From: Candidatus Bathyarchaeia archaeon
Lineage (GTDB): Archaea > Thermoproteota > Bathyarchaeia > Bathyarchaeales > Bathycorpusculaceae
Assembly: GCA_049512075.1 (NCBI GenBank)
Contig: JBEKXL010000003.1
Coordinates: forward strand, 96,001 to 160,000
Direction of reading: 5' to 3'
Length of the DNA: 64,000 nucleotides
The notes beneath the pieces were generated by a model. It made no database searches, was not told the DNA's origin, and saw only the letters and a list, made by a program, of their open reading frames with translations. Every line of letters begins with the position of its first letter. The first letter of the stretch is position 1. Below are positions 1 through 9,200 of this stretch, in pieces. The position numbers and the translations under genes were made by a program.

Positions 1-2973
1 CGTGGTAAAGTGTCCCATCGTGATAGCATTTGTTGGACAGGCCGTACCGCATGCGCCGCAGCCCTTGCACAGGGCTTCAATCACGTGTGCGATTGGTTTT
101 CCATCCTTGTCCTTCATTTCGACTGCACCGTATGGGCATAGATACTCACAGATTCTGCAGGCACTACATAAATCTTCGTCAACGTTTGCGATGATTCCTT
201 CCATCTCGAGCGTGTTTTTGGAGAGTATTGTTGCGGCCCTCGAAGCAGCTGCACACGCTTGCGCGATGCTTTCTTCGACGTACTTTGGCGAGTGAGCCAT
301 TCCACACAGGAAAACGCCGTCGGTTGCGAAATCCACTGGACGGAGTTTCATGTGTGCTTCCAGGAAGGAGCCATCCTTTGTCAGTGGCACCTTGAGCAGT
401 TCGGCTATATGCTTGTTCTCAGGGTTCGGAATCGTTGCCGCGCTCAAGACTACGAGGTCAGGCTCGATTTCGAGTTGTTGCTTCAGCACGGGTTCCCAGA
501 AAGCCATTTTGAGTTTGTTTCCCTCCTTGGTGAGTTCCGGCTTGCGTTCATCGTCATAGTTTATGAACGTGACCCCTTTCATTGCAGCGTCACGGTAGTA
601 GTCTTCCTTGAACCCGTAGGATCTGATGTCCTTGAACAACACGTACACTTCGGTCTGTGGGCTTACTTCCTTGATTTTCAAAGCGTTCTTGATGGCTTGT
701 CCACAGCATATTCTTGAGCAGTTGGGTCGCTCTTTTGTTCTTGCGCCGATACATTGGACCATGACCACGTTTTTGGCGTTGAATTCTCCTTTGGCAAGGT
801 CTTCTTCCAGCTCATGCTGTGTCACGACCCTCGGGTCTTTGTCATAGAAGTACTCGGTGGGTCTGTATTCCACCGCACCAGTGGCGACTACCACTATGCC
901 GTGCTGAATTTCCTTTTCGCTACCGTTCTGCTGGTGGATTTTTGACTTGAAGTTTCCCACGAAACCGTAGACGTCGGCAACTTCTGCTCCCGTGTAGACG
1001 TGTATCTTGTCATTCTTCATGACTTCGTTGACGATGGCATTTACTTTTTCTTTCGGGTCGCTTTTCTCTCCAAGTAGATAGTACATTGTGCGAAGATGAC
1101 CGCCCAATTCCTTTTCTTTTTCAACCAAATGCACTTCGAACCCTTGTTTTGCAAGCTCCAGAGCTGCCGTCATGCCGGAGACGCCGCCTCCTATGATGAG
1201 ACCGACCTGGGTGACGTTTATCACCGGTTTCTTCAAGGGTTTCAACAGTGCTGCTTTGGCAACTATTGACCTGACGAGGTCTTTGGCTTTTTCCGTGGCC
1301 TCTTTCGGCTCATGCATGTGTACCCAGCTGCACTGGTCTCGGATGTTCGTCATCTCAAACAGGTACGGGTTCAATCCAGCTTCCTGGACTGTTTCTTTGA
1401 AGAGCGGTTCGTGCGTCCTCGGCGTGCACGAAGCAACTATGACGCGGTTCAGTTTGTTCTGCTGGATTTCTTCGCGTATGAGCTTCTGTGTGTCCTGTGA
1501 GCAAGTGTAAACGTTTGCCTCTGCGTAGACCACATTTGGCAGGGTCTTTGCGTACTCCACGACTTGGGGTACGTTTACGACTCCGCCGATGTTGATCCCG
1601 CAGTGGCAGACGAAAACTCCGATGCGAGGCTCTTCTTTGCTCACGTCTCTTTCAGCAGGATACTCTCTTGCTACAACCTGTGTTCCTCTTGCGTCTGCGA
1701 TTATTCCCATGGCTCTTGCTGCTGCGCCGCTTGCTTGGGCTACGCTTTCAGGTATGTCTTTCGGTGCAGAGAAGGCGCCGCAGACGAAGATGCCCGGTTT
1801 AGAAGTGTCCATCGGAGAGAAGGTTTGTGTTTCGCAGAAGTTGTACTTGTTGAGCTTGATTCCCAGGTTTTTGGCCAGTTCTTCAACGCCCTTCGGGGGT
1901 TGCATTCCTATTGCCAGCACAACCATGTCGAACTCTTCCGTCTTTGGGTTTTCGTCTTGGACGTAATGGACGAAGAGGTTGCCCGTCAACGGGTCTTCAG
2001 TTACTCCGGCGACGCGTGATCTCGTGAATCTTATGCCATACTCTTCTTCAGCGCGGTTGCGGTAGGCGTCGAACTCTTTTCCGTACGAACGCATGTCCAT
2101 GTAGAAGATTGACGCGTCCATTTGGATGGGTGTGTGCTCTTTTGCTATGACGGCTTCTTTAATGCCGTACATGCAGCACGCCGCGGAACAGTAGTTGTTT
2201 CCGAGCTGGTAGTCTCTTGAGCCGACGCATTGGATAAAGGCCACCCTTTTCGGTATTTCACCGTCTGAAGGTCTTATGACGAGTCCGCCGTACGGGCCGG
2301 AGGCGCTCAGGATGCGTTCGAATTCGATGCTTGTGACGACGTTTTGGAAGCGTCCGTAGCCGTACTCGCTTTTGAGCCTTGCGTCGAAGGGTTCGAATCC
2401 TGGAGCGAGGATTATTGAGCCAACTTTCAGGGTTGTTTCGGTCTCTTTCTGGTCGTACTCGATTGCTCTTGCTTTGCAGATTTCGTAGCACGTTCCGCAT
2501 CCTATGCATTTTTCGCGGTCAATCTTGTACTTCAGTGGGACTGCCTGTGGATACTCCACGTAGACTGCGCCTCTGTTCGCTAGGCCTTCGTTAAACATGT
2601 CAACGGCTTCGATTGGACACTTCTGCGCGCAGATGCCGCAGCCGTTGCACTTGTCTTCGATTATGTAGCGGCTGTTTCTTCGAATCTTTACTTCGAAGTT
2701 TCCAGCTTCACCGTTCAATCCCGTGATGTCCGCGTTCGTCAGAATCGTGATGTTCGGGTGCCTTCCAGTTGCAACAAGCTTGGGTGACAGGATGCACATT
2801 GAACAGTCGTTTGTTGGAAATGTTTTGTCGAGCTGAGCCATCACTCCGCCTATGCTTGGTCCTTTGTCAACAAGGTACACTTTGAATCCGGAGTCGGCTA
2901 GGTCCAAGGATGCTTGTATGCCAGCGACTCCTCCGCCGACCACCATTACTGCTCCGATTTTTTGGTTTTTCAT
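1..2973 (-). CDS. hdrA: Large (two-FAD type) heterodisulfide reductase subunit A family protein, 3' end outside the window
   Basis: Manual translation from ATG at 2973: MKNQKIGAVMVVGGGVAGIQASLDLAD...DKTFPTNDCSMC, CVGSRD...YCSAACC, GVFVCHCGINI, ASCTPRTHEP, a second GGGVSG FAD motif and C-terminal CxxCxxC ferredoxin motifs. Absent from the ORF track because there is no stop in the window. Confidence 0.93.
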   Translation of the reverse strand, partial: MKNQKIGAVMVVGGGVAGIQASLDLADSGFKVYLVDKGPSIGGVMAQLDKTFPTNDCSMCILSPKLVATGRHPNITILTNADITGLNGEAGNFEVKIRRNSRYIIEDKCNGCGICAQKCPIEAVDMFNEGLANRGAVYVEYPQAVPLKYKIDREKCIGCGTCYEICKARAIEYDQKETETTLKVGSIILAPGFEPFDARLKSEYGYGRFQNVVTSIEFERILSASGPYGGLVIRPSDGEIPKRVAFIQCVGSRDYQLGNNYCSAACCMYGIKEAVIAKEHTPIQMDASIFYMDMRSYGKEFDAYRNRAEEEYGIRFTRSRVAGVTEDPLTGNLFVHYVQDENPKTEEFDMVVLAIGMQPPKGVEELAKNLGIKLNKYNFCETQTFSPMDTSKPGIFVCGAFSAPKDIPESVAQASGAAARAMGIIADARGTQVVAREYPAERDVSKEEPRIGVFVCHCGINIGGVVNVPQVVEYAKTLPNVVYAEANVYTCSQDTQKLIREEIQQNKLNRVIVASCTPRTHEPLFKETVQEAGLNPYLFEMTNIRDQCSWVHMHEPKEATEKAKDLVRSIVAKAALLKPLKKPVINVTQVGLIIGGGVSGMTAALELAKQGFEVHLVEKEKELGGHLRTMYYLLGEKSDPKEKVNAIVNEVMKNDKIHVYTGAEVADVYGFVGNFKSKIHQQNGSEKEIQHGIVVVATGAVEYRPTEYFYDKDPRVVTQHELEEDLAKGEFNAKNVVMVQCIGARTKERPNCSRICCGQAIKNALKIKEVSPQTEVYVLFKDIRSYGFKEDYYRDAAMKGVTFINYDDERKPELTKEGNKLKMAFWEPVLKQQLEIEPDLVVLSAATIPNPENKHIAELLKVPLTKDGSFLEAHMKLRPVDFATDGVFLCGMAHSPKYVEESIAQACAAASRAATILSKNTLEMEGIIANVDEDLCSACRICEYLCPYGAVEMKDKDGKPIAHVIEALCKGCGACGTACPTNAITMGHFTT

Positions 2974-2974
2974 T

Positions 2975-3736
2975 TTATTCAACCTCCAAAGCCTTGTAGA
3001 GAGGTGTCGTTCCCTCGATGCTGTCAAGAGCTATCATGTTTTTTCTGCGCATGTTCACTATCTGTTTGAGAACCGCCGCTGGCTTCATTTCGGTTACTTC
3101 TGCCAAGGCCTTGACTGAAAGCGGCTTGGTTTTTGTGAGAAGGTGAATCTTGTACCTGATGAATTCGTCTTCAACAACGTCATCCATCAATGTGTCGAAT
3201 TCTTCAGGTGTGAGTTTGTCACCGTAAACGTTCACGCCTTCGGTGAGTTCCTTCTCCCTGCCAAGCAAGACTCTCAGGCGAAACTCGCCGGCAGCGTTCT
3301 TGGCAGCTAGGAGATTCACAATAGGCATGGATTCGCGCTTTGCATTTTTCAGCTGGGAAGCTCCTAGTTTCTCTATTTCCTTGGAGAACTCTTTCGCTGA
3401 GCGCGTGAAACTCGTTTCTTCCAAGGGCGAGTACCAGAGCAGGCTTAGGCGTTCAGGTTCCAAGCCTGTCAATGCCAACAGCTTCTTCAGCATTTTTACG
3501 GCGCGTTCTGCTTGCAGGTTACCTTCAACGAAGTGGCAGTCTGGCGGTTTGCATCCTGCCAGCATCACGGCATCGGCGCCTTTCTCGAATATTTCGAGAA
3601 CAACGGTCGGGTCTATTTCTCCGATGCAGTTTACGCGTGCCACGTTAATGTTGGATGGTACTGGGTTTTCGCTCCTGCAGAAGGCGAAGTTGCACATCAA
3701 ACAAACAATTCTGGGTTCTTTGTCCGTCATTCTCAT
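2975..3736 (-). CDS. mvhD: MvhD-like [2Fe-2S] subunit with C-terminal winged-helix-like extension
   Basis: RVNCIGEIDP, GADAVMLAGCKPPDCHFVEGN and GLEPERL motifs; directly upstream of hdrA; start may be MTDKEP at 3730. Confidence 0.8.
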   Translation of the reverse strand: MRMTDKEPRIVCLMCNFAFCRSENPVPSNINVARVNCIGEIDPTVVLEIFEKGADAVMLAGCKPPDCHFVEGNLQAERAVKMLKKLLALTGLEPERLSLLWYSPLEETSFTRSAKEFSKEIEKLGASQLKNAKRESMPIVNLLAAKNAAGEFRLRVLLGREKELTEGVNVYGDKLTPEEFDTLMDDVVEDEFIRYKIHLLTKTKPLSVKALAEVTEMKPAAVLKQIVNMRRKNMIALDSIEGTTPLYKALEVE

Positions 3737-5455
3737 CTACTCCTTGGGGGTTGGTATGGCAAAGTTTAGTATGTGCTCGTTGGTTATTTTCTTCATCGTT
3801 ATCGCCCTTACTGGGCATCTTGCTGCACAGAGTCCACATCCCTTGCACAGATCCTCGTTTATTCGTGCGATGTTGTTCTCGTCCTTTTCAGCTGCTCCGA
3901 ATGGACAGACGATGGCGCACACGTTGCAGCCTATACAGAGAGCTTCGTCGACGGCGGCCTTGTCGCCCTCGCATAGATCTGTGGTTCCGAGGCATTCTGC
4001 GCAGGGTCCGCAACCTAGGCAACGGCAAGCTTCAAACTTGGCGTCTCTCTCCAGTTTTTCCACGTAGTCTTGCACCTCTTCGAAAGCGGTATGGGATTTC
4101 TCTGAGAGAGGGTTGTACCGACGTTCTTTCTTCTTTATCTGTTTCGGGTTTTTGGCCCATGTTGCTTCTTCGATGTTCTCTTCTCTTCCCTTGTGGATGT
4201 CTTGTCCGCTCAGGTGTAGGTGAATTGACGCGGCTGCTCGTTTTCCCTGTCCCACGGCTTCGATTATGCTTGCGGGTCCAGTGGTTATGTCGCCGCCTGC
4301 GAAGACTCCTGGAATTTTGGTCTCGAGTGTTAATGGGTCTGTCGTTATCGTTGGAATCTTTGCTTTCTCATCCTGCAGGGGCTTCGGGATGCACTTACTT
4401 TCTGCTAGCTGGCCCAGGGCGGGGATGACCATGTCCACTTCGTACTTGTGCTCAGAACCGGGCATCGGCACTGGACGCCTCCTGCCGCTTTCGTCAGGCT
4501 CACCCAGCTTCATTCGCAAACATTCGAGGGCCACGACTTTGCCGTTTTCGCCGATAATCTGTTTTGGTGCAACTAGAATCTCTATTTTGACGCCGTCCTT
4601 TTCGGCTTCTTCCACTTCGCTCGGTAAGGCGGGCATTTCCTCTCGGGAACGTCTGTACAGAAGGGTGACTTCTCTTGCACCCAATCTTTTGGCTGTTCTG
4701 GCAGCGTCAATTGCGCTGTTCCCACCGCCGACCACAGCTACTCTCTGTCCGACTTCCACTTTTTTTCCAAGGGCTATGTCTCTTAGGAAGTCAACGGCGT
4801 TCACGACGCCCTTCAGGTCTTCACCCGGAACGCTAAGCATCATTCCTTGCTGGGTGCCGATAGCCAGAAAAATAGCCTTGCAGCCTTCCTCCTGCAGGCT
4901 TTCAATCGTGATGTCCTTTCCAAATTCAACGCCTGTTCTGATTTCCACGCCCAGGTCTTTGATGTAGTTTGCTTCGTTTTCCACGACGAATTTCTCAAGG
5001 CGGAAATCAGGTATACAGTAGCGCATCATGCCTCCAGGCTCGGCCATGCGTTCATAAACTGTCACGGGGTAACCGAGTTTTGCGAGTTCGTATGCCGCGG
5101 TTAGGCCTGCGGGACCCGCTCCGATGATAGCGACTTTCTCTGCGTGTCTCTTGGGTATGGGTTTGGGTTTGACCTTTCTCTGTTGGCGTTCGATGTCGGC
5201 GACGAACTTCTTCAATGCGCGTATGGCTACAGCCTGGTCCACATCAGTTCTTGCGCATGCGTCCTCACATGGACTGAAGCACACTCTTCCGCAGATTGCT
5301 GGGAAGGGCATGTCGTTTCGAATGATGTCAACTGCTTCCTTGTACTTTCCTCTTTGAATTAGAGAAACGTATGCTTGAACGTTAACGTGTGCTGGACATG
5401 CAAATCGGCATGGCGGGAGCTTTCTTTTCACGGTTGTCACAGTCTCAGTTGTCAT
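3737..5455 (-). CDS. GltD/NfnB-like FAD/NAD(P)H oxidoreductase with C-terminal 4Fe-4S domain
   Basis: PPCRFACP, CGRVCFSPCE, IIGAGPAG, VGGGNSAID, FAGGD, and C-terminal CxxCxxCxxxC motifs. Confidence 0.88.
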   Translation of the reverse strand: MTTETVTTVKRKLPPCRFACPAHVNVQAYVSLIQRGKYKEAVDIIRNDMPFPAICGRVCFSPCEDACARTDVDQAVAIRALKKFVADIERQQRKVKPKPIPKRHAEKVAIIGAGPAGLTAAYELAKLGYPVTVYERMAEPGGMMRYCIPDFRLEKFVVENEANYIKDLGVEIRTGVEFGKDITIESLQEEGCKAIFLAIGTQQGMMLSVPGEDLKGVVNAVDFLRDIALGKKVEVGQRVAVVGGGNSAIDAARTAKRLGAREVTLLYRRSREEMPALPSEVEEAEKDGVKIEILVAPKQIIGENGKVVALECLRMKLGEPDESGRRRPVPMPGSEHKYEVDMVIPALGQLAESKCIPKPLQDEKAKIPTITTDPLTLETKIPGVFAGGDITTGPASIIEAVGQGKRAAASIHLHLSGQDIHKGREENIEEATWAKNPKQIKKKERRYNPLSEKSHTAFEEVQDYVEKLERDAKFEACRCLGCGPCAECLGTTDLCEGDKAAVDEALCIGCNVCAIVCPFGAAEKDENNIARINEDLCKGCGLCAARCPVRAITMKKITNEHILNFAIPTPKE

Positions 5456-5516
5456 TCTCGAACCTCGCTTCACTCATCAAGTATTGTTTCCAAAGCGAAC
5501 TTATTAAATCGCCTAA

Positions 5517-5539
5517 GCCACCCTTGGCATATGGGTGGC
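5517..5539. promoter_or_regulatory. Inverted repeat GCCACCC-N9-GGGTGGC upstream of the hdr-operon TATA-like box (operator or terminator)
   Basis: Perfect 7-bp arms at 5517-5523 and 5533-5539; TTTAATAA (minus strand) at 5501-5508. Confidence 0.4.
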
Positions 5540-5583
5540 ATAAATCGAGATCGCAGGCTTGATACGTCGTATTAGAATCTTGT

Positions 5584-6174
5584 TTATTCACGTGATCTTT
5601 CCTCCAGTTTGTCAACCCATTTGTTGTATTCGCGCGCGCCCATCAGGCTGTCAAGCTCTTGCTTCATGGTCAAGGAGTTGTTCGGTTTGATTTCCGCGAT
5701 CCATCCTTGTCCGTATGGGTCTTCGTTGACCATGGTGGGTTTTTCTCTGAGTTTTTCGTTGATTTTGGCTATTTGGCCGCTGACTGGTGAGTAGAGGTCA
5801 AACAGCAGCATCCATGTTTCGGCGACTCCGAACGGTTCCATTTTGTTGAGTTCTTTTCCAACTGGCTCTGTGCGAACTTGAGCCAGACCTCTCAGTCGCT
5901 TCTGTGCATAGTCAGATATGCCGACGCGTACGTTTCCATCTGTTGTCGTTTGAGCCCAGGTGTGTTTCGGCGTGTATAGCAATTGGTCGGGTGCGGAAGG
6001 CGTTTCCTGAGTCTTGCCCGTTGAGAATCCCTCTGCGCGCGCGAGTTCCTCCAGACGTAGGCGGATAGCCTCTGAAACAAATTCCGATATGCTTCGGTAA
6101 CGGCCTGTTTTGATGACCTTTTCGATTTCTTTTATGAGCTCCTGTCTGATGCTAATCGTCTTCCACTCAGACAT
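5584..6174 (-). CDS. Ribbon-helix-helix domain fused to a glycine cleavage H-protein-like domain lacking the lipoyl Lys
   Basis: N-term WKTISI...YRSISEFVSEAIR (RHH/CopG). C-term YTPKHTW...VGISDYAQ...DLYSPVSG...VNEDPYGQGW (GcvH fold), with AETWM in place of AESVK. Confidence 0.85.
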   Translation of the reverse strand: MSEWKTISIRQELIKEIEKVIKTGRYRSISEFVSEAIRLRLEELARAEGFSTGKTQETPSAPDQLLYTPKHTWAQTTTDGNVRVGISDYAQKRLRGLAQVRTEPVGKELNKMEPFGVAETWMLLFDLYSPVSGQIAKINEKLREKPTMVNEDPYGQGWIAEIKPNNSLTMKQELDSLMGAREYNKWVDKLEERSRE

Positions 6175-6398
6175 TCACAGGCCTTCCTTCCCTCGGTTTT
6201 GAGTTAGATGTGCTTCAAGTTTGAGTTATTTAGAGTTTTCCTTGACCGTCTAGGAAATAATCCATTGCCTGAACATAAATCAAAACAAGTAGACTGGGCG
6301 CTTCCAATCTAGAATGCGGGTCAAAACTGGCCCGATTCTCTCTGATGCTTCGAAAGCCTCGCCAGTTGGGTCTCATTAGAACCACTGAAGGAGGTAGG

Positions 6399-9200
6399 TT
6401 AACTCGGCATCGCTTCTGCTTCTTTCTGTTCTTTTGGTTCCAATTGCGTTCGTATCTGGTTCGAGGCCTGTTTTTCCTTGACCGTTTTTGGCTCTGCGCA
6501 TCTAGCTTCTTCTTCTCTGATGCTGAGCATTCCTTTCACGGTTCCGTCATCCATGTATTTGACGGCGAAGCCCATTTTCTTCATGAGACCCATCGCCCTA
6601 TAGTTGTCAGCAAGCATTATGGCATAGATCGTTTCGAGCTTCATGTCAGCGCAGATTTCAAGCACATAATCTACGAGTTTCGTGCCGAGTCCTAGACCTT
6701 GCCAAGGGTCGGCGACTATGAAGGCGATTTCACCTGTTCTTCCGTCAGGTTCTATGCTCACTCGGGCTACGCCGAGGATTCTTTTTCGTCCTTCTTCCGT
6801 CAGTTCTGCGACTATGGCTATTTCTCGGTCGTAGTCTATGTTGCAGTAGCGGACTCTGGTTTCGTGCGGTGTGTCCTTGAGTACCTGGAAGAACCTATAG
6901 CGTATTGATTCTTCTGAGAAGTTCTGGAACATTTCTAGCCATAGTGGTTCGTCTTCGGGCTTTATCGGCCTCAGTATGACCGTCCTCCCGTCTCTTAATC
7001 TCCACATGGTCTCGTATTTTGTCGGATACGGCGTGACGATGAGATGCTGGTGAGGCTCAAACTTTGTAAATACCTTTGAGGGGTCTATCACGATGCGCGC
7101 GTCGAAGGCGAAGGCTTCTTTTTCATTTATGAAAAGCGGGTTGATGTCAACCTCTTTGAGCTGCGGAAAATCAACGAGCATTTGGCTGAAGCGGACCATT
7201 ATTTCTTCCAGCAGTTTGATGTTCGCGGGAGGGAAATTTCGATATCCTTTCAGAAGTTGATACATCTTCGTTTCTTCCATCATTCTTCTGACAAGAGTCT
7301 GGTTCAGCGGTGGGATTCCTATTGCGAAGTCCTTAAACAGCCCAACTCCAACTCCACCCATCCCGAAGAGTATGACCGGGCCGAAGAGCGGGTCTGCTTT
7401 CGCCCCGATGATTACCTCGTAGCCCTGCCTCTTTATCATGGGCTGAACGGTCACGCCCAGAATCTCAGCGTCCGGATCGTGTTCCTTTGCCTTCTGCGTT
7501 ATGCGTTTGAACGCCTCTCGCGCTTCGGCCTCGCTTGTTATGTCAAGCACGACGCCGCCTACGTCGCTTTTGTGAGTTATTTGAGGAGACAGAACCTTCA
7601 TCACGACCGGATATCCCAGCTGCGAAGCCAGTAGAGCCGCTTCGTTTTCAGTCTGAGCAGTCTTCGTTTTCACAACTGGGAAGTTGTAGTACTCCAAGAA
7701 TGTTTTGGCTTCAACTTCGGTGAGTATTTCACGGTTCTCAGTCGCAACGTTTCTCAACACGGTCAAGAGTGGTCGTCTTGGCGGCACAACGTCTACTGGA
7801 AGTTCTTCCGGTGTTTCATAAAGCAATTCAAGGTTGCGCTTGTACTGGTACATGTATTGGTACGTCTTGATTGCCTGCTCGGGTGTGGAGTATGTCGGAA
7901 TGTTGTTATCTATGAATATACGGTTAGCTTCTTCCACCGCTCCATAACCCATGAAAGAAGTCAATATTGTCTTGTTTTGATAAGTTCGGCTTCTTATCAG
8001 CTCTGCGAGACTCTTGGCCACTTCCACAGGTTCTACCACGGCTTGGGCAGTGTATATTATCACTATTCCATCCACATTATCATCGTTTAGACAAGCCTCA
8101 ACAACCGCCCTGTACCTGTCGGCCTTGGCGTCTCCGAGGATGTCAATCGGGTTTCCCCTGCTCCAGAAATGAGGCAGAACACTGTTGAGAACCTCCATCG
8201 TCTTGTCGCTGAGCTTCGCAAGCGTTCCTCCCTGAGCGATTAGAGAGTCGGTTGCCATGACGCCCGGCCCGCCGGCGTTGGTGATTATGGCAAGGTTGGG
8301 GCCTCGAGGTATAGGCTGCATGCCTAGCACTGCGGCACAGTTGAAAAGGTCCGCGATTTCTTCCACTCTAACCATGCCCGCCCGTTTGAACGCCTTGTCG
8401 TAAATCATGTCTTCGCCCGTCAGCGAACCAGTGTGCGAAGCAGCGGCTTTCGCGCTTTCGCTGAACTTGCCAGCCTTCACCACGATTATCGGTTTAGTTC
8501 GGGCAAAGTGTCTCGCGGCGCTCATGAACTTTCTGGCGTCGGTGATTCCTTCAATGTACATGAGGATGCTCTTCGTCTTCGGATCAGTGCCGAAATAGTC
8601 CATGAGGTCACCGAAGTCCACGTCGATCATCGAGCCCAACGACACGAAGTTGCTGAACCCTATGTTTTCATGCATCGCCCAGTCAAGGATTGCCGTGCCC
8701 AAGGCGCCGCTCTGAGAGATGAACGCTATGTTGCCCGGCTTCGGCATCTTGCTGATGAACGTCGCGTTCAAGTGCATAATTGGACGAATCACACCTAGAC
8801 AGTTCGGTCCAACGATTCGCATGTTATATTTCTTCTTGATTTCGGTTATTCTCTCTTCCAGTGCTCTGCCCTCAGGCCCGATTTCTTTGAAGCCCGCTGA
8901 GATTACGATAATGCCGTCTATACCGGCTCTTCCACACTGTTCGAGGACATCGGGCACAGTTCTCGCCGGTGTGGCTATCACGGCAAGATCCACGGGTTCA
9001 GGAACCTGTTCGACGTTTGCATAAGCCTTCAAGCCCAGAACCTCGGTTTTCTTGAGATTGACAGGAAAAACATGCCCCCCGAACCCTGACTCTGTGAAAT
9101 TCTTCATCAAAGCATAGCCGACTGAACCCTCTTCATCGCTTGCCCCAATAACCGCCACGCTTTTCGGGTTGAAAATCTTGTCAAGATTCAAGGTAACCAA
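6399..9200 (-). CDS. NDP-forming acyl-CoA ligase alpha/beta + C-terminal GNAT fusion (Pat/YfiQ-type protein acetyltransferase)
   Basis: VIGAS, GPNCLG, SQSGA, SHTGSL, TNAGGPG, ITHKSDVGGV, DINP, then GNAT LRDG...RPIKPED...WQGLGLG. Confidence 0.9.
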   Translation of the reverse strand: MVTLNLDKIFNPKSVAVIGASDEEGSVGYALMKNFTESGFGGHVFPVNLKKTEVLGLKAYANVEQVPEPVDLAVIATPARTVPDVLEQCGRAGIDGIIVISAGFKEIGPEGRALEERITEIKKKYNMRIVGPNCLGVIRPIMHLNATFISKMPKPGNIAFISQSGALGTAILDWAMHENIGFSNFVSLGSMIDVDFGDLMDYFGTDPKTKSILMYIEGITDARKFMSAARHFARTKPIIVVKAGKFSESAKAAASHTGSLTGEDMIYDKAFKRAGMVRVEEIADLFNCAAVLGMQPIPRGPNLAIITNAGGPGVMATDSLIAQGGTLAKLSDKTMEVLNSVLPHFWSRGNPIDILGDAKADRYRAVVEACLNDDNVDGIVIIYTAQAVVEPVEVAKSLAELIRSRTYQNKTILTSFMGYGAVEEANRIFIDNNIPTYSTPEQAIKTYQYMYQYKRNLELLYETPEELPVDVVPPRRPLLTVLRNVATENREILTEVEAKTFLEYYNFPVVKTKTAQTENEAALLASQLGYPVVMKVLSPQITHKSDVGGVVLDITSEAEAREAFKRITQKAKEHDPDAEILGVTVQPMIKRQGYEVIIGAKADPLFGPVILFGMGGVGVGLFKDFAIGIPPLNQTLVRRMMEETKMYQLLKGYRNFPPANIKLLEEIMVRFSQMLVDFPQLKEVDINPLFINEKEAFAFDARIVIDPSKVFTKFEPHQHLIVTPYPTKYETMWRLRDGRTVILRPIKPEDEPLWLEMFQNFSEESIRYRFFQVLKDTPHETRVRYCNIDYDREIAIVAELTEEGRKRILGVARVSIEPDGRTGEIAFIVADPWQGLGLGTKLVDYVLEICADMKLETIYAIMLADNYRAMGLMKKMGFAVKYMDDGTVKGMLSIREEEARCAEPKTVKEKQASNQIRTQLEPKEQKEAEAMPS

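Follow-up and report, generated by a model that had tools for sequence, protein, structure and literature searches.

What is a protein for that joins a DNA-binding domain to an H-protein unable to carry lipoate, and why does its gene stand at the head of a hydrogenase operon? The question is raised by a gene in a 64,000-nucleotide (nt) stretch of a Candidatus Bathyarchaeia archaeon genome (assembly GCA_049512075.1, contig JBEKXL010000003.1, positions 96,001 to 160,000), hereafter the window, in whose own coordinates positions are given. A preliminary description made from the letters alone had read the gene as a ribbon-helix-helix (RHH) domain fused to a non-lipoylatable, basic GcvH-like domain, and had proposed a transcription factor that uses the dead H-protein fold as a sensor or interaction module to control the adjacent hdr operon. 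Our analysis leads to a related answer, which we regard as rather probable: the product would be an RHH transcription factor controlling the adjacent cytoplasmic NiFe-hydrogenase/heterodisulfide-reductase (Hdr) operon, and probably its own promoter too. Its architecture is most likely NikR-like, with the dead H-protein as the predicted regulatory domain.

The fusion gene and its parts are as follows:

5584..6174, minus strand: coding sequence of the RHH and lysine-less H-protein-fold protein P0001, 196 amino acids (aa) (uninterrupted translation; 846 homologues at E ≤ 0.001)
6034..6165, minus strand: RHH domain, residues 4-47, with β-strand K-T-I-S-I-R and helices 9-22 and 29-47 (RHH_1 match; AlphaFold2 model)
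5998..6030, minus strand: disordered linker, residues 49-59 (predicted local distance difference test score, pLDDT, below 50 in the model)
5590..5991, minus strand: H-protein (GCV_H) fold, residues 62-195, not lipoylatable (Pfam, 107 bits; Foldseek target template-modelling score, TM, of 0.93 to 3klr)
5809..5814, minus strand: codons of Trp121 and Met122 at the hairpin tip, where H-proteins have Val-Lys(lipoyl) (HMMER alignment; family comparison)

The C-terminal domain was recognized by Pfam as GCV_H at residues 65-188 (E 7.7e-31, 107 bits, cut-off 22.2), and HMMER matched P0001 to 13 solved H-proteins at E ≤ 1e-13. An AlphaFold2 model built from 46 family sequences reached a mean pLDDT of 83.4, with about 90 for the β-rich H-domain. 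In Foldseek, the modelled H-domain superposed on the bovine, human, E. coli and Thermus H-proteins with target TM values of 0.90-0.93 and root-mean-square deviations (rmsd) of 1.1-1.5 Å, and the set including the Mycobacterium H-protein spanned target TM 0.85-0.93 at 34-38% identity and the same rmsd range. The N-terminal 58 aa, scanned in isolation, matched RHH_1 with 24.4 bits (cut-off 20.5), 11 of 15 family N-termini also matched RHH_1, and the top solved RHH match of a family N-terminus profile was the RHH of H. pylori NikR (E 0.002), outranked only by a repeat-driven hit to ribosomal protein eL39. Two copies of the H-like domain (residues 60-196) obtained a self-association score of 0.27, where the mark is 0.42, a value that speaks neither for nor against association. 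The domain matches and the model show that the protein consists of an RHH module, a linker and an intact H-protein fold, and the fusion noted from the letters is borne out by Pfam, by the isolated N-terminus and by the model.

The lipoyl lysine is absent. In the HMMER alignment, the hairpin lysine of solved H-proteins (E-S-T/V-K) falls on Met122 of A-E-T-W-M, and the codons agree: the plus strand reads cat at 5809-5811 (Met122) and cca at 5812-5814 (Trp121 on the minus strand), confirming the replacement of ESVK by AETWM, with Met codon 5809-5811, that had been reported at this place. The change is conserved. Among the query and the 120 homologues most like it (71-93% identity), 112 have E-T-W-M and nine have E-T-W-V, which accounts for 121/121, and E-T-W-[M/V] is found in 78/78 copies adjoining the operon. 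The lysine is also missing from all ten aligned full-length clusters at ≤50% identity, whose hairpins read ETWM, ETWL, ESWW, LTRF or ET..W with an insertion, where the canonical sequences of the same alignment, including the genome's own GcvH, carry E-S-V-K. The H-domain therefore cannot carry lipoate, as the lysine is absent in every member, and on this comparison its loss is a conserved feature, neither decay nor sequence error. In an all-against-all representative library (7232 matches at E ≤ 0.001), eleven of the best 150 matches span both domains. The recurrence of the fusion together with lysine loss in every relative examined is, judging by these alignments, far beyond chance.

The remodelling extends past the lysine, as seen when 46 aligned family members were compared with 86 canonical H-proteins. 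The family keeps E119 (98%), T120 and W121 (93%), has M122 where 94% of the canonical proteins have K, and carries F123 and F125 where the canonical residue is S in 70%; the hairpin flank shifts from canonical S-V-K-A-V-S to T-W-M-F-x-F, and four residues are inserted at 169-172. Acidic positions have turned basic at 70 (E/D to K), 92-93 (D/E and Q/E to K/R and H/R), 101 (E to R) and both 134 and 137 (E to K), and G-D at 95-96 has become K/R-G. The preliminary description had called the domain basic, which holds for these individual positions but not for the domain as a whole: it is neutral in P0001 (net charge 0, isoelectric point 7.2), ranges from -8 to 0 in the family, and compares with -6 for the genome's canonical GcvH. 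The replaced acidic surface would speak, if anything, against docking of the usual H-protein partners.

Homologues are named 'glycine cleavage system protein GcvH' or 'H protein' of Candidatus Bathyarchaeia in their source records, and the protein atlas entries for the family belong to Bathyarchaeota clusters only. Because the lysine is missing, the GcvH label is, at the level of sequence, a functional mis-annotation. A search for the two-domain architecture established that the fusion is no one-off: a profile scan gave full-length matches in 23 of 301 Bathyarchaeia genomes and in 11 of 401 genomes of the phylum, all from the window's own order. Some genomes (G077, G118, G223 and G645) have tandem pairs, in which the hairpin of the upstream copy ('type B') is changed to E-S-W-W or carries an insertion, and tblastn against related loci identified the distant 50%-identity clusters as such type-B tandem paralogs of the same order. 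Cysteines are absent from P0001 and most type-A members; the main lineage has 0 cysteines and one to four histidines, of which only H71 is conserved, a residue that canonical H-proteins have too. A quick, unrooted maximum-likelihood tree placed types A and B on one side of a branch (Shimodaira-Hasegawa-like approximate likelihood ratio test, 96), apart from 60 canonical H-proteins, which fits a single origin of the fused lysine-less domains. On the genomes scanned, the family is one lineage restricted to one order of Bathyarchaeia.

The classical H-protein role appears to be already filled in this genome, since a canonical 136-aa GcvH with E-S-V-K lies on contig C2, GcvP (two subunits) on contig C9, GcvT on contig C13, and three BPL/LplA/LipB-family genes lie away from the locus. 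The fusion gene adjoins neither gcvT nor gcvP. At the canonical GcvH locus (L001, contig C2, 1465-3233), the gcvH stop overlaps the start of a gene for a 453-aa single-cysteine pyridine-nucleotide-disulfide oxidoreductase that looks, by eye, CoA-disulfide-reductase/NADH-oxidase-like rather than like a classical L-protein.

What the fusion gene does adjoin is an operon beginning 110 nt downstream (the window's clade has a 113-nt spacer), of which the window holds three genes:

3737..5473, minus strand: first operon gene, a GltD/NfnB-like NAD(P)H iron-sulfur flavoprotein (Pfam Pyr_redox_2, Fer4_20, Fer4_21)
2975..3736, minus strand: MvhD/FlpD-like subunit (Pfam FlpD, 1.2e-31)
1..3027, minus strand: double HdrA-like subunit, 1024 aa, extending beyond the window start (Pfam; downstream contig)

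The likely true start of the GltD-like gene is the ATG at 5455, relatives aligning from residue 7-17 on. Beyond the window follow a second MvhD, HdrC, HdrB (CCG domains), MvhG (NiFe small subunit), MvhA (NiFe large subunit) and a HycI-type protease. Its gene content makes the operon a complete electron-bifurcation module of the Mvh-type hydrogenase/Hdr kind, to which an NAD(P)H-type subunit has been added.

For synteny, 24 loci of related genomes and 80 contigs from metagenomes were examined, and 98 of the copies had 700 nt or more of sequence downstream. The GltD-like gene comes next, within 450 nt, in 73 of them; a TauE-like permease comes next in eight, followed by a Hox-type or a GltD/Mvh/Hdr operon, and a second copy of the fusion gene in five. 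The other 12 lie outside the strict criterion (four with the GltD-like gene further on, four type-B copies ahead of type A, and four with no hydrogenase gene found downstream). One genus (L042, L044, L046 and L047) has the fusion gene heading TauE, a 124-aa open reading frame, NuoE/F/G-like genes and NiFe small and large subunits, an arrangement that, from its genes, is a Hox-type NiFe hydrogenase operon. What stays constant is therefore not hdr as such but the presence of a cytoplasmic NiFe hydrogenase operon as partner.

Co-occurrence was followed in 49 genomes, one per genus of the family, scanned for the GltD-like gene and for the fusion. A GltD-like ortholog (at least 62% identity) is present in 18 of them, with the fusion directly adjacent in 17; in the 18th only 337 nt of contig remain beyond the GltD-like gene, enough to read the final 72 residues of the fusion. 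No fusion was found in the 31 genomes of this set without the ortholog. As related genomes are not independent, 18/18 against 0/31 is a strong linkage and not a statistical test. These sequence counts show that the gene accompanies and adjoins the operon wherever the operon occurs in the sample. The tie to the adjacent operon that had been proposed for this locus thus gained from synteny and co-occurrence, as it did from a tandem repeat within 5470-5580 described next, but its object needed correction: the unit is an Mvh-type NiFe hydrogenase with HdrABC and the GltD-like protein, replaced by a Hox-type operon in one genus.

The DNA on either side of the fusion gene contains the following candidate control elements:

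5524..5542, minus strand: tandem direct repeat TATGCCA-N4-TATGCCA with an 11-nt period, candidate operator (clade alignment; pattern and distance tests)
5500..5519, minus strand: B-recognition element (BRE)/TATA-like element of the putative operon promoter, GGCTTAGG...TTTAATAAG (conserved block in the clade alignment)
6226..6239, minus strand: BRE/TATA-like element of the putative promoter of the fusion gene, AAAACTCTAAATAA (in 21/21 clade upstream regions)
6198..6229, minus strand: two TAACTCA(A) copies with starts 22 nt apart, candidate autoregulatory sites (kept in 21/21 clade members, loose pattern)

The tandem repeat lies 5 nt upstream of the BRE-like element of the operon and 15 nt upstream of its TATA-like box. 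Most clades have an oligo-T tract after the stop of the fusion gene, then a TTAATATAT box ~45-55 nt before the GltD-like start; because of the oligo-T tract and the separate TATA-like box of the operon, the fusion gene appears to be its own transcription unit in most clades. The loose form of the repeat, T-R-N-G-Y-Y-A-N4-T-R-N-G-Y-Y-A-W, a pattern composed after viewing some of these sequences and applied to related loci, was found in 54 of 78 spacers between the fusion gene and the GltD-like gene (66-100% protein identity), where ~0.005 per spacer is expected from its 76 hits in the 1.84 Mb of all locus DNA examined. The remaining hits lie nearly all in the fusion gene's own promoter or before an Hsp20-like gene. 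Since the pattern had been written after inspection, a pattern-free distance test was run: a 7-mer is repeated, with at most one mismatch, at a distance of exactly 11 nt in 34 of 61 non-redundant spacers, compared with 6.6 in shuffles and 1-17 spacers at the other distances from 7 to 25 nt. The repeat accompanies 54 of the 75 copies whose β-strand reads K-T-[IV]-S-[IL]-R and none of the three, a very small group, with K-T-[IV]-R-V-R. Operators of the Arc/MetJ/CopG type consist of repeats one helical turn apart, and the 11-nt tandem repeat is a candidate operator of this RHH type.

The same 11-nt tandem repeat also stands directly upstream of a gene for a 161-164-aa protein, Hsp20/alpha-crystallin-like by eye, located beside the AbrB-PhoU gene discussed below (positions L036 3745, L106 3347 and L113 3346); judged by this repeat, the Hsp20-like gene may be a further target. 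Two repeat hits on contig C1 were rejected as regulon members, since neither falls within a promoter that could be recognised. An inverted repeat, GCCACCC...GGGTGGC at 5517-5539 on the minus strand, overlaps the tandem repeat and shows, by eye, compensatory or G-U-type changes in several relatives. In RNAalifold, a stem of no more than 4 bp is supported (covariation term -0.37), and a hairpin is not claimed.

Upstream of the fusion gene, the window's clade (21 sequences, 82-98% identity) conserves the BRE/TATA-like sequence AAAAC[CT]CTAAATAA at 6226-6239. Of the two TAACTCA units, one partly coincides with the TATA-like box and the second is close to where the transcript is expected to begin. 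In the other clades, TATATAT(C)-N13/14-TATATATC occurs at the same place, once per locus (15 of 25 loci by the strict pattern, 19 of 25 by eye). The window and its genome lack the palindrome ATATATAT-N-TATATATC that these clades have.

From these elements a mechanism can be outlined. Two RHH dimers would bind both repeat units at 5524-5542 and, from their place upstream of BRE/TATA, modulate recruitment of TBP and TFB, a position more in keeping with activation than with repression. At 6198-6229, the two TAACTCA units cover the TATA box and the place where the transcript should start, from which autorepression would be expected. The dead H-domain may act as the regulatory module, as the C-terminal domain does in NikR, the signal entering through the conserved aromatic hairpin (E-T-W-M-F-x-F) and the remodelled surface. 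As the aromatic hairpin sits where the lipoyl arm normally emerges, the signal would be a protein partner or a small hydrophobic ligand. A thiol switch or metal signal is probably excluded by the lack of cysteines and the few histidines of the main lineage, and by three genes with a true NikR_C domain elsewhere in the genome.

The proposed regulator resembles known systems only in part. With NikR it has in common an N-terminal RHH followed by a C-terminal regulatory domain, and a functional tie to NiFe enzymes; unlike NikR, its C-terminus is an H-protein fold, not the ACT-like NikR_C, and has no His/Cys nickel site. To GcvH (PF01597) it is alike in sequence family (107 bits) and fold (target TM 0.93, rmsd 1.2 Å, 34-38% identity), but it differs in the missing lipoyl lysine, the aromatic hairpin, the acidic positions turned basic, the 169-172 insertion, the N-terminal RHH and the lack of gcvT/gcvP adjacency. 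Arc, MetJ, CopG and omega repressors have the same RHH fold and operators with the tandem, one-turn layout of our candidates; most of them have a single domain and come from bacteria, phages or plasmids, whereas this one is archaeal with a 135-residue C-terminal domain. LbpA genes adjoin sHdr genes, and LbpA of the sHdr sulfur-oxidation systems is comparable in that a GcvH-like fold is encoded beside an Hdr-type complex. According to a 2026 bioRxiv preprint, LbpA retains and requires its lipoyl lysine. Here, by contrast, the lysine is gone, an RHH is fused, and the neighbours are GltD-like, MvhD, an Mvh-type HdrABC, the MvhAG hydrogenase and HycI, with LplA-family genes elsewhere.

A further relative is P0133 of the representative library, whose 1391 aa comprise three GCV_H domains, none of them with the hairpin lysine, as well as FAD_binding_4/FAD-oxidase_C, Fer4_8 and two CCG domains (GlcD plus HdrD-like). 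Like the fusion, it ties a lysine-less H-fold to CCG/Hdr-type redox modules; unlike the fusion, it has no DNA-binding domain, only about 31% identity and hairpins without Trp-Met. From its domain content, P0133 is a second, independent link of lysine-less H-folds to Hdr-type modules. P0160, P0185 and P0236 consist of tandem lysine-less H-domains. Full-text literature searches found no description of an RHH-GcvH fusion; the single paper in which the two terms co-occur has them in unrelated passages.

Several points weigh against a transcription factor acting on this operon. In the full-length protein, RHH_1 at residues 6-43 scores 20.1 bits, slightly under the Pfam cut-off of 20.5. The post hoc origin of the loose pattern and the relatedness of the loci have been mentioned; in addition, the strict repeat pattern is missing from 24 of the 78 loci. 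A genome-wide scan with the loose pattern gave four hits against ~2.5 expected, so a regulon cannot be called. The own-promoter elements are clade-specific, TAACTCA here and TATATATC elsewhere, despite a near-identical DNA-reading strand, and the periodicity test in the other clade is confounded by (TA)n low complexity. No hydrogenase operon was found downstream of L056, L058 and L129, nor any hydrogenase gene in the 1.4 kb available downstream of L111. Finally, the sole RNA library found, a peat metatranscriptome, covers only the GltD-like gene (contigs 4433-4663 and 4913-5140), and its lack of cover over the fusion gene has no bearing either way.

Could the protein instead belong to the enzyme? 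As an accessory or scaffold subunit of the Hdr/Mvh complex, it would use the RHH only to dimerise and the dead H-fold to dock the enzyme, for example where a lipoyl-protein or a similar carrier is accepted. Such a subunit would be expected to adjoin the operon strictly and to co-occur with it, as the gene does; P0133 physically fuses lysine-less H-domains to a CCG/HdrD-type enzyme, and the aromatic hairpin is conserved as expected of a contact surface. We nevertheless think it unlikely: the oligo-T tract and the operon's own TATA-like box make the gene a separate unit in most clades, operator-like repeats flank it, and the same protein heads two kinds of operon, Mvh/Hdr and Hox-type, which suits a regulator more than a dedicated subunit. 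To our knowledge, RHH domains are almost only DNA binders. A nickel-responsive NikR analogue tuning NiFe-hydrogenase expression, in which the H-fold replaces the ACT-like nickel-binding domain, would keep the DNA-binding role. It draws on the NikR RHH as the best solved match, on a weak similarity to the N-termini of the genome's own NikR proteins and on a NiFe hydrogenase in every conserved downstream operon, but the main lineage offers no cysteine, its sole conserved histidine, H71, is common to canonical H-proteins, and the genome already has its three NikR_C genes. Such a nickel sensor seems to us very improbable.

The remaining explanations find still less room. The strong GCV_H match, the H-protein fold, the GcvH names in databases and the place beside an Hdr complex, as LbpA beside sHdr, would be expected of a working lipoate carrier, whether an alternative GcvH or an LbpA-like Hdr substrate protein. 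Yet no member examined has the hairpin lysine, the flanking recognition residues are changed with it, and a canonical GcvH lies elsewhere in the genome; at the level of sequence this explanation is refuted, and we give it next to no credence. As little credence goes to an antitoxin-like RHH protein or to a fusion that is decaying and has no specific role. Weak matches to RHH_1 and to ParD-antitoxin profiles would allow the former, but no toxin gene is adjacent, and decay is at odds with a reading frame intact in more than 100 loci and 60-93% identity across genera with the signature residues conserved. A link to the role of H-protein in [FeFe]-hydrogenase maturation was rejected, the hydrogenases here being NiFe and the lysine missing.

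A bolder possibility, to which we assign little probability, would give the regulator its signal: the dead H-domain may be a substrate mimic. Hdr/Mvh of non-methanogenic Bathyarchaeia would then use lipoamide on the canonical H-protein as its 'heterodisulfide', and the lysine-less H-fold would dock at the same site of Hdr/Mvh with the Trp-Met hairpin in place of the lipoyl arm, coupling operon transcription to the amount of substrate-free enzyme. If true, this would link H2-driven electron bifurcation to a reductive glycine route and name an Hdr substrate outside methanogens.

The surroundings of the fusion gene vary among relatives. In one family (L042, L044-L047, L050, L052 and L053), the gene between the fusion and the hydrogenase operon, Hox-type or GltD/Mvh/Hdr, is a TauE/SafE-type permease, which hints at a link to sulfonates or sulfur compounds. 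Many relatives (L035, L037-L039, L043, L048, L049, L051 and L057) have, a few kb upstream of the fusion gene, another and more distant HdrA-MvhD-HdrC-HdrB and MvhG-MvhA set, with 40-75% identity to the first. The upstream neighbour in most clades is a divergent gene for an AbrB/MazE-type DNA-binding domain fused to PhoU (~360 aa), present in nearly all clades bar the window's (L035-L053 and most of L081-L138); it and the fusion gene have a common promoter region of ~125 nt. In the window's clade, a co-directional acyl-CoA-synthetase-like plus GNAT gene takes this place instead:

6399-9200, minus strand: 933-aa protein with CoA-binding, succinyl-CoA-ligase-like and ATP-grasp domains and a C-terminal GNAT (Pfam), directly upstream of the fusion gene in the window's clade only

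This is the architecture of the bacterial Pat/YfiQ-type protein acetyltransferases.

HdrABC-MvhADG is widespread in uncultured non-methanogenic archaea, where its disulfide substrate and its regulation are obscure; in a study of a non-methanogenic termite-gut member of the Bathyarchaeia, the heterodisulfide reduced by Hdr is said to remain unclear (PMC7886697). A lineage-specific regulator with defined candidate operators would offer a handle on this system that is usable in vitro without culturing the organism. The new aspect is most likely that the predicted C-terminal regulatory domain of an RHH regulator is a dead cofactor carrier, and the family would then show clearly how the fold of a cofactor carrier can be taken over to serve a transcription factor as its regulatory domain. 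For genome interpretation, the mis-annotation of these proteins as GcvH inflates the glycine-cleavage or reductive-glycine capacity predicted for Bathyarchaeia genomes.

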